Source: a virus
Taxonomy: Duplodnaviria > Heunggongvirae > Uroviricota > Caudoviricetes
Length of the DNA stretch: 8,696 nucleotides
Strand: one strand, 5' to 3'
IMG/VR virus record: IMGVR_UViG_2751185959_000005
This document shows positions 6,001-8,696 of this stretch, piece by piece. Each line of letters opens with the position of its first letter. The stretch's first letter is position 1. Made by a program: the position numbers.

Positions 6001-8696
6001 TTATAATAGCAATTGATGCAATCTTTAGAGAAATAGTCAAGAACAATATAGTGATTTTAATCATATCACTGTTATCGTTCATGTTGTCACAAACAGTGCT
6101 CAATCATAACCCATTACTAGATCCTCAATGGTTTTGGAACATAGACTCCGCTATGGCATACTGGTGGTTATTGCCTCTCGGTAGATGTATGTTTTTAGAA
6201 TTAACACGTGACAGGTTTTTTGGAAAATCTAAAATTGGTTTCATTGTCTTCTCAATTACCGCTATAATGAGTGCGTATCAACTACTTAACCAGAAACCTT
6301 TACTTTTTAAGATTATCTCAATATTCAATGCAGACATAATATCAAGTAGTTATATTCAAGCTATTAATACTATTATCACCACGGTAGGCTTGATAATCTT
6401 TAATATTTTCATAGCAAAAATAATTTGTGGAAATGACTTTATTGTAAGAGCTGGAAGAAATACTCTTAACATATGTGGAATGGAGTATATCACCAAATTA
6501 TTTATCCCTATGGCTTTAGCAATTATAGGCTTCAGCGTGACTATTCCAAATCCTATCTGCGCAATCATATATACCTGTATTTGTGTATATGTATCAGATA
6601 AAATTGGCCATTGGCTATCGAGGACAGTCGGTGGGCCATTTTTGATAAAATGATAAAAAGGCGCAATTAATTGCGCTTTTATAGATATATAGCGCATATT
6701 TATGCTCAGATTATACTGTTAAAATTAATGCGCAAATGTTACGGTTTTCTTTCCTAGCAACTGAAGGGAATGTTCGAAGTGCAAACATAAAATTACCCCT
6801 TCACTGAACAGATATTCAGTCGACCAACACATGAGAAAGAAATACACCAGATGAATTAAAATATCATATACTTATTAATCAAAGAAATAAAAGCATAAAC
6901 AGTAGGTGGTGACGCTGATAAACTGGCTATAAACAACCTGGAAGGTGATGAGCTATCGCAATATAATTTATTGGCGAATTATTTGAAGCCAATTGATAAC
7001 ACCAGTGCTCAAAAGACTCCCCCCGGTAACCATAAGTAGCTAATATCTAGTACAGTTTCGATATCTATTATCGTTACTGCGTCGATATAGTCTAAATAGC
7101 TGCACCTAATTCTGCCACACTTGTCGTTTACAGATGGGTAATGTGTTGCGTATGGGCAACAAAACTCAAGCCAGATATAACACAACCTAGCTGAGAACGC
7201 CTTCCTGATGCTTCGCCCAGCAAGGGCTGAGCGAAAGTGGAGCACTTTTCTGCGCAGCTATTTAGGACAGTATTGAGTCATATTGTTTATGTATGAGTTA
7301 AGTTTCGTAATATCAATTAAATAAAATAAGTTGAAATCATTGTAGAAGTGAGCATTATACCCAGGCTACCTGAACCTACTGAAAAACGAGTATTATTCCA
7401 ACAATTATCCTAGATTAACAAGTCTATTTATTTGGATGCATAGGCCACTCGGGTTTTACTACATTAACACGCATAAGCAGCACCCGATATTTTTTCCATG
7501 CCAGTAACAGTTTCGTTTCATCATCTGTTGCCATACCTAAATCAACCGCATCCTGAAGCGGAGCTATTACATTCGTTGCCTCTGCTATCAGTGCAGATTT
7601 CTTTTCATCATTTATTAAGGCTAATTGTTCTGGTGTTGGAGAAGGACGGTCAACAATGACAGGATGACCGTTCTCACCACAGGTAATCATTTTTGTTACA
7701 CTCTGTGCATTAATCAGTGTTTTCCACTCTGATTCCGAGATTTCCACTGCATCATCAGGAATATTGGTGCCGTGAAATTCAGTCGAATAAAATCCGTTTG
7801 TCGATGCAGAATAAAAATATGACATTTTGTTAATATCCCATTGCAATGTAATACGCATCAGCAGATGAACCGTATCCTGAACCGGGCGACACAGTAATAT
7901 TAAATCCAGTGTTCTGGACACTTGTCGCCGATACAGTCGGCTGCCCAGCCGCGCCAGTAACGTTCAATGTAACTACGACAGCAATTACTCTTGAGAACGT
8001 CATCGGGAACCTCATCCCGTATGTTGAAGATACATTCGGGGCACCATTCAACTGACCGCACTGTAAAATTAATCCAGACGGAAATTTTTGCGCAGCAGCC
8101 GTTACGGTATTAATTGACGCGAACAGGCTCATATCAGGTATCTGATTCGCCCCTGTACCTACATTCCTTTTAGCTGCTTCTCCCAAACCAAGGTTTTCGA
8201 GAGCCGTTTTCACCGTGCCATCCGATTTGATATCGCCAAACGGATTCTTGCGGCTTAACAGCAGCGCGCGAAGTGCGGTAAGCAACTGATCGTGCCGCCC
8301 CTTCTCCAGGCTGGCACCGGATGCCTCCACCACGCTGCAAAGCTCCTCCTGCAACATGTCAAAGTAGTCATCATCCAGATCGGTGGCAGGCGTGCCAGTC
8401 TGGGGGTTACCACGGGTAAAACCGTTCTTACCCGCGCCGAACTTATCCTTCTTCGCGGTTTTCGTGTCTATACGATGCATGGATTACTCTGAGGTGTACT
8501 GGCAATAGCGGACACTACCATTTGTTCTTTTTTTAAGCAGCCATCTGATGATATTTTTCCCTGAAGGCTGCCGGGGAGATATTCCCCAGACGAGAGTGAC
8601 GACGCTGACGATTGTAGAAAATCTCAATGTATTCCCGTATTACTGAGATGGCTTCATCCCGGTTATTAAAACGATAGTGGCTCAGGCTCTCATTTT

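Follow-up and report, generated by a model that had tools for sequence, protein, structure and literature searches.

Does a solitary recombination site inside a tail fiber gene belong to a switch that still turns, to one that no longer does, or to none at all? The question is raised by an 8,696-nucleotide (nt) stretch of Caudoviricetes DNA (IMG/VR record IMGVR_UViG_2751185959_000005; here, the whole stretch is called the window), in which an earlier note, made from the sequence alone, had recognized a crossover site of the Din family of serine invertases and read the locus as descended from an invertible host-range switch that is now fixed. Our analysis supports that descent. The locus is very probably the decayed remnant of an e14/Pin-type (Din-family) invertible tail fiber host-range switch, carried by an SfII prophage, as indicated by an exact copy of the crossover site pixL, remnants of tail fiber assembly (tfa) and invertase (pin) genes, relatives in which the switch is alive, and a fiber cassette that also occurs in live switches.

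A pixL site at the constant/variable junction

The crossover site lies at positions 8178-8203 and reads TTCTCCCAAACCAAGGTTTTCGAGAG. It is identical at 26 of 26 positions to pixL, the left crossover site of the e14 P segment (Table 3 of PMC3241671), and to the stfP-internal site of e14 in Escherichia coli K-12, which bears out its assignment to the Din family. Two imperfectly symmetric 12-bp half-sites, 8178-8189 on the variable side and 8192-8203 on the constant side, flank a 2-bp core (AA, 8190-8191), as in other sites of the family. Identity is 21/26 to pixR and mixQ''R', 20/26 to hixL, cixL, and cixR, and 18/26 to gixL, bixL, and bixR, and spans 16 to 21 of 26 positions over all hix, gix, cix, mix, and bix sites compared. 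When the window was searched with a loose Din pattern allowing up to three mismatches, this was the one place that matched, against a chance expectation of 0.24.

The site occupies codons 93 to 101 (ALENLGLGE) of a 216-amino-acid (aa) tail fiber gene on the minus strand (7830-8480), and both its position at the constant/variable junction and the accompanying shift in base composition are as previously proposed. The constant N-terminal part (aa 1-92; 8204-8480, minus strand) has a GC content of 0.56, which falls to 0.47 in the variable C-terminal part (7830-8177, minus strand) and to 0.40 in the adjoining tfa gene (7424-7858, minus strand; Pfam Caudo_TAP, E = 8e-26; annotated as SfII_24). The variable part contains a Gp53-like_C domain (Pfam PF21882, E = 2e-13, aa 132-216). 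The constant part gave no match to Mu S or P1 S at E <= 1e-3 and is 94 to 95% identical to aa 1-109 of e14 StfP. The first 101 aa of the fiber are 97 to 100% identical in phages SfI, SfII, SfIV, SfV, and SKA5. Three Escherichia myophages with a 'side tail fiber protein' (H130-H132) have only fiber aa 76-101 in common with it, at 100% identity.

On the other side of the junction, the tip (here Sv) and tfa form a mobile Sv-tfa cassette (7463-8191, minus strand) that is 97% identical to cassettes of other phage types. In E. coli ABWA45 (L086), this cassette is silent and inverted, lying between two sites beside a full-length recombinase; in E. coli Rb-23 (L085), it is active, on a P2-like long fiber. 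Identity to both copies ends at, or 3 nt beyond, the central AA of the site, which is the signature expected of cassette exchange at the crossover point. At its 3' end, tfa is unlike the cassette copies elsewhere over 13 codons (7424-7462), which marks a second, illegitimate junction. In relatives, similarity to the fiber tip of the window is lost 1 to 48 nt beyond the site, and for 19 of them the divergence begins within 2 nt of the site end. The match to the three myophages suggests that otherwise different fiber genes have in common a small conserved junction box that immediately precedes the site.

Remnants of two further tfa genes and of an invertase gene

A second crossover site had been proposed, in degenerate form, at 6929-6954. 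This sequence matches known Din sites at only 6 to 11 of 26 positions, and the best Din match anywhere within 6850-7100 (15/26) falls towards the bottom of the maxima obtained from shuffled sequences (14 to 18). Neither a second full site nor a half-site was found in the window or in the complete 41.5-kb genome of Shigella phage SfII.

The region around the supposed site is better described as tfa. The open frame at 6905-7039 (44 codons) does lack a start, as had been noted, but its reported similarity to the fiber gene does not hold up (BLASTP, E = 0.33 over 8 aa); it matches instead the C terminus of Tfa (TfaP aa 91-133; BLASTP, E = 3e-7). A tblastn search with YfdK placed aa 29-95 at 6709-6906, with two in-frame stops, and aa 98-133 at 6914-7021 (sum E = 3e-7). 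With blastn, the region is 67% identical at the nucleotide level to tfa genes of related loci (E = 5e-7), and among the weak matches to frame 6905-7039 in 2.3 Gb of phage DNA, all annotated ones are tfa genes. On these matches, the segment 6709-7039 (plus strand) can be taken as a degenerate tfa' pseudogene of the YfdK/TfaP type that covers aa ~29-137, is interrupted by two in-frame stops and a frameshift near 6906, and points towards the active tfa.

Traces of yet another tfa gene, of the TfaE/TfaS type, lie on the minus strand at 7009-7307. They comprise the last ~38 codons, with in-frame stops, in two pieces (7260-7307 and 7024-7095) followed by a stop at 7009-7011. The second piece is 54% identical to the last 24 residues of TfaE/TfaS (TfaE aa 175-198; E = 4e-4 to 2e-3), and the first matches the TfaE residues immediately preceding these. 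With 7096-7259 excised, the two become one continuous match to TfaE aa 161-198 (50% identity, E = 2e-7); no extension of this remnant was detected upstream of 7307. The open-frame 3' ends of the two tfa remnants overlap by ~31 nt (7009-7039).

What splits the TfaE-type remnant is an inserted 174-nt element (7092-7265, no strand assigned) that stands outside the switch proper. It resembles a miniature inverted-repeat transposable element (MITE), with imperfect terminal inverted repeats (CTAAATAGCTGC...GCAGCTATTTAG) whose 31-nt arms are 74% complementary, and a DNA fold z-score of -3.07. Copies at 70 to 77% identity are found in ~92 E. coli chromosome and plasmid records, and a three-copy alignment gives sharp, flank-independent ends (CTAAAT...ATTTAG). 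On one plasmid (L096), a copy follows a TnpB (InsQ) gene at a distance of ~420 nt.

The window had been thought to contain no invertase gene. This is correct for an intact gene, and no full invertase gene is present in the SfII genome either, in which tblastn yields a short fragment alone; in the window, that fragment, of 36 to 39 aa, lies at 5390-5506 (minus strand), sharing its strand with the fiber gene in the manner of live switches. It corresponds to aa ~74-112 of a Din-family serine invertase of the phi80 PinL/SKA5 type. In a search of the whole window, it is 54 to 58% identical over 36 to 39 aa to the Pin protein of a related locus (L021; E = 7e-10), which is also the invertase of SKA5. 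Its annotated tblastn matches in 2.3 Gb of phage DNA are all DNA invertases (phi80 pinL, mEpX1, mEp237, HK225, and SKA5; E = 4e-6 to 1e-5). In the SfII records the fragment, which lies between the insertion sequence (IS) ISSfl9 and oacD, is unannotated (19947-20093 of NC_021857).

The earlier note had also held that the locus lost its second tfa. On the present evidence, a second and even a third tfa survive in degenerate form; the parts lost are Sv' (the second tip), the partner site, and the greater part of pin. A tblastn search of the window with StfE and other fiber tips detected no Sv', and pin codons 1-73 are likewise absent. The place where these would be expected, ~5507-6708, is occupied by the O-antigen acyltransferase gene oacD (5604-6653, plus strand) together with the upstream region and terminator of that gene. 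The invertase genes of the Hin, Gin, and Cin systems contain the Fis-dependent enhancer at their 5' end. The absence of pin codons 1-73 thus removes the usual location of this element.

Live and decayed relatives, and the fate of the switch

Read along the fiber strand, the locus runs constant part, pixL, tip, tfa, TfaE-type remnant (same strand), tfa' (opposite strand), oacD, pin fragment (same strand), ISSfl9, gtr genes, and integrase gene (int). Apart from oacD and the IS, the order and strands are those of the e14 P segment, in which stfP and tfaP are followed by convergent tfaE and stfE', pixR, and pinE. The two loci share an identical pixL, the constant part, and a pin gene on the fiber strand. 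The e14 tfaP and tfaE genes converge with a 3' overlap of 29 nt, comparable to the ~31 nt between the remnants in the window, and a YmfQ-type baseplate neighbor is a common feature in relatives. Unlike e14, the window has no pixR and no Sv', retains ~39 codons of pin that belong to the PinL/SKA5 subtype, carries a different active tip and tfa cassette, and has oacD at the right end of the segment.

A complete counterpart is found in Escherichia phage SKA5 (OR670062), a cultured, SfV-like phage with a constant region 97% identical to that of the window, an exact pixL, and an invertase of the same subtype as the fragment. Its gene order (YmfQ, fiber with exact pixL, tfa, convergent tfa' and Sv', second site, invertase, dinI, int) is collinear with the window. 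Unlike the window, SKA5 retains the second site (TTCTCCCAAACCAACCTTTCAAATAT), Sv'-tfa', and a 187-aa invertase, and it has no gtr genes or oacD in the stretch examined. A decayed counterpart exists in the K-12 prophage CPS-53 (KpLE1), where a solitary exact pixL, lying outside e14 and thus the second copy in K-12, sits in the fiber pseudogene yfdL (L004, 5884-5909). Here, yfdK (tfa) converges with a 29-nt overlap on tfaS, a truncated tfa' pseudogene, and gtr genes and int come next. CPS-53 differs from the window in that its fiber gene is N-terminally truncated, its tfa' remnant is of the TfaE type and unsplit, and oacD is not annotated.

More distant members of the family have the same site architecture, with the 16 to 21 of 26 matching positions given above: the G segment with Gin (Mu), the C segment with Cin (P1), Min (p15B), the B segment with PinB (Shigella boydii), and the H segment with Hin (Salmonella). 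Gin, Cin, Min, and PinB switch fiber tips at the constant/variable junction. All of these systems are intact, whereas the locus in the window is a relic. The genome paper of SfIV describes an extra tfa that is absent from SfI, SfII, and SfV and is followed by ISEhe3 open reading frames (ORF-22 to ORF-24), and proposes a role in host range (PMC3851460). By analogy with the present locus, this extra gene is probably the tfa' of a decayed inversion segment.

How common is an intact switch among close relatives? We surveyed 80 IMG/VR loci sharing the constant region, 59 of which extend far enough downstream to be informative. A pixR-like site in inverted orientation accompanies a full-length Pin in 23 of these and a truncated Pin in 16, and is present with no Pin seen in a further 7, so that the second site is kept in 46/59 (78%). 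The remaining loci are without a second site, eight of them SfII-like and five others. The pixR-like site lies 1.5 to 2.0 kb downstream of pixL, or 3.5 kb in one three-site locus (L037). Intermediate stages are also represented. One locus (L022) combines pixR, Pin aa 1-49, ISSfl9-like remnants, and gtrA, and in another (L076), as in CPS-53, a truncated tfa' is directly followed by gtr genes. The ISSfl9-like debris of L022 comes directly after the Pin truncation at aa 49, a hint that ISSfl9 had a role in destroying the invertase gene.

Two loci in the survey have unusual arrangements. L037 has sites at 6278, 7903, and 9749, two of them exact pixL copies in direct orientation and the third an inverted pixR, with a full Pin after it. 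The locus resembles a multicassette system and is reminiscent of p15B Min. By analogy, a tandem-cassette ancestor of this kind could have given rise to the active tfa of the window together with its same-strand tfa remnant. L016 has exact pixL copies at 325 and 2183, inverted relative to each other and each on a full constant part (aa 1-108, both strands), with no Pin seen. This arrangement may reflect a symmetric duplication or an artifact of assembly.

Taken together, the order and orientation of the remnants suggest an ancestor that carried a constant part, pixL, a first tip with its tfa, a converging second tfa with its own tip, an inverted second site, and pin. A serine invertase would have flipped the segment between the two sites, joining either tip to the constant part. 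A new tip/tfa cassette, joined at the crossover core, may then have displaced the first one, leaving the two older tfa genes to degenerate, and the right half, comprising Sv', the partner site, and the beginning of pin, would have been replaced by or lost to the oacD region. The IS and MITE-like insertions presumably came after. The left site survives without a single changed nucleotide, since it codes for the conserved ALENLGLGE linker and the fiber gene is still open. As a single site is left, the enzyme is missing, and an enhancer in cis is presumably missing too, the segment should be unable to invert and the specificity of the fiber should be fixed; from the sequence, we infer a present lack of inversion. 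No inverted isoform was found among 10 E. coli genomes and the SfII records spanning the region, each of which matched as one collinear piece.

Several observations weigh against descent from a switch. The tfa and pin remnants are short and degenerate, and their identification draws on BLAST E values of 1e-5 to 1e-10 and on consistent annotation; Pfam gave no match to the three fragments at E values up to 10, for which they are too short and degenerate. An exact relative from before the deletion, and thus without oacD, was not found among the 80 loci with blastn queries 5248-5603 and 6654-7430, and the flanks of oacD are near-identical in SfII-like loci alone, other matches being ~67% identical and to tfa genes. 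Nor is the site exceptionally conserved. Among 63 haplotypes from close relatives, it ranks 83rd of 278 windows in nucleotide conservation, with low-frequency variants at 12 positions. Since the site is not better conserved than the constant region around it, its intactness requires no more than coding constraint and recent ancestry as an explanation and is uninformative on any residual function.

Could it be, then, that this lineage never had a switch, the 26-mer having been kept as the ALENLGLGE linker and the nearby frames being matters of chance? The location of the site in coding sequence, its ordinary conservation, and the silence of Pfam are compatible with this, as are the constant region shared by SfI, SfII, SfIV, and SfV and the absence of an annotated invertase in SfII. 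We nevertheless find it very hard to credit, as it would leave to coincidence three independent remnants (two tfa and one pin; E = 2e-7 to 7e-10) whose order and strands are exactly those of a live switch, annotated matches that are exclusively tfa genes and DNA invertases, and a second site in 78% of the informative close relatives. The opposite possibility, that the switch is still active and its second site and invertase lie outside the window, gains some room from the IS600 copies at the window ends, which hide the original neighbors. In the relatives, however, the partner site and pin are always on the tfa side, 1.5 to 3.5 kb from pixL; in the window this side is fully included and filled by oacD, ISSfl9, and the gtr genes, and in the complete SfII genome there is a single site but no invertase. 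Active switching is thus extremely improbable, and for local inversion it is refuted.

This leaves the question as to whether the solitary pixL is still a working target for a Din invertase supplied in trans, as the earlier note had allowed. Such an enzyme, be it Pin of an e14-like element, a PinQ/PinR-type enzyme, or Gin of SfMu, would pair it with a pix- or gix-type site of a coresident prophage or an infecting phage, with exchange of tip cassettes between phages or a large chromosomal rearrangement as the outcome. A partial precedent exists, in that the e14 P segment is acted upon in trans by PinQ, PinR, and PinE, with cross-complementation among Din enzymes (PMC12529663). The partners are also at hand: CP178306.1 has both an intact e14 pix/pin system and a solitary gtr-linked pixL (L091 and L093), another S. 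flexneri genome has an intact Pin system (L088), and the S. flexneri phage SfMu carries gin (PMC4406740). The cassette of the window is, moreover, common to SfV-like and P2-like fibers, with identity ending at the core. These boundaries could equally date from the time of the intact switch, however, or result from homologous recombination in the conserved 40 to 80 bp around the site. Normally, Din invertases require that two inverted sites and a Fis-bound enhancer be present in cis on the same supercoiled DNA, and intermolecular reactions are strongly disfavored. A pair of sites is necessary for inversion, and there is but one in the window and in the SfII genome as a whole; the SfII-like relatives are all collinear; and BLAST evidence of inversions is reported for e14 only, not for CPS-53 with its same solitary pixL (PMC12529663). 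We therefore regard a functioning target as unlikely. The broader idea that solitary pix sites (in SfI, SfII, SfIV, SfV, and CPS-53) are docking points at which trans-acting Din invertases swap tips and tfa genes between unrelated phages would explain the same cassette on SfV-like and P2-like fibers with breakpoints at the core, and we consider it similarly doubtful.

If the locus is, as we favor, a relic of an e14/Pin-type switch, the tail fiber module of the serotype-converting phages SfI, SfII, SfIV, and SfV and of K-12 CPS-53 would descend from phages with a Pin-type host-range switch, and in SfII, oacD would now occupy the exact place of the former alternative tip, second site, and beginning of the invertase gene. 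The 770 bp that follow the SfII tfa, at present without annotation, could then be labeled as switch debris, and the extra tfa of SfIV probably likewise. A solitary pix site is accordingly no evidence of phase variation. The cassette comparisons add examples, at nucleotide resolution, in which tips have passed from one phage family to another at the crossover core. Site, enzyme family, and switching logic are all textbook material and the mechanism is not new; the relevance lies in the annotation and history of medically important Shigella serotype-converting phages, and the outcome will not surprise specialists. In the searchable literature, outside of which fall the older SfV genome paper and Sandmeier's reviews, we found no published account of the SfII/SfV relic.

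An SfII module between IS600 ends

The window as a whole is an SfII-type prophage remnant of Shigella flexneri, cut off from the rest of the phage. Its gene order (int, gtrA, gtrB, gtrII, ISSfl9, oacD, tfa, and short tail fiber) matches Shigella phage SfII (NC_021857) gene for gene; a 741-nt intergenic stretch is 99.3% identical to SfII, and the fiber and Tfa proteins are 100% identical to the SfII versions. The same configuration, including the right-hand IS600 junction, is present at 99.93% identity in an S. flexneri chromosome (SFBU1023, L089). On the plus strand, a C-terminal piece of the integrase gene (192-566) is followed by gtrA (828-1190), gtrB (1187-2116), and a GtrII-type glucosyltransferase gene (2113-3573). 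The oacD gene, an acyltransferase-3 gene by Pfam (Acyl_transf_3) and annotated as SfII_25, is known to be carried by the SfII prophage (PMC8973906). An Rfam scan of the whole window gave no match at the gathering score.

The two ends of the window, 1-211 and 8486-8696, are perfectly complementary stretches of 211 nt each that belong to IS600. One truncates int, and the other stops 5 nt upstream of the fiber ATG, with ymfQ and the baseplate genes removed. As IS600 thus ends inside int and 5 nt upstream of the fiber ATG, the fiber gene itself is probably a relic.

Two further features of the module concern its mobile elements. The IS4-family element ISSfl9 (3963-5153, minus strand), flanked by 31-nt imperfect inverted repeats at 3926-3956 and 5217-5247, is complete (3926-5247) and lies between gtrII and the pin fragment. 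The arrangement of an 8.3-kb serotype conversion module between inverted IS600 copies is like that of a composite transposon, or might be invertible through homologous recombination.

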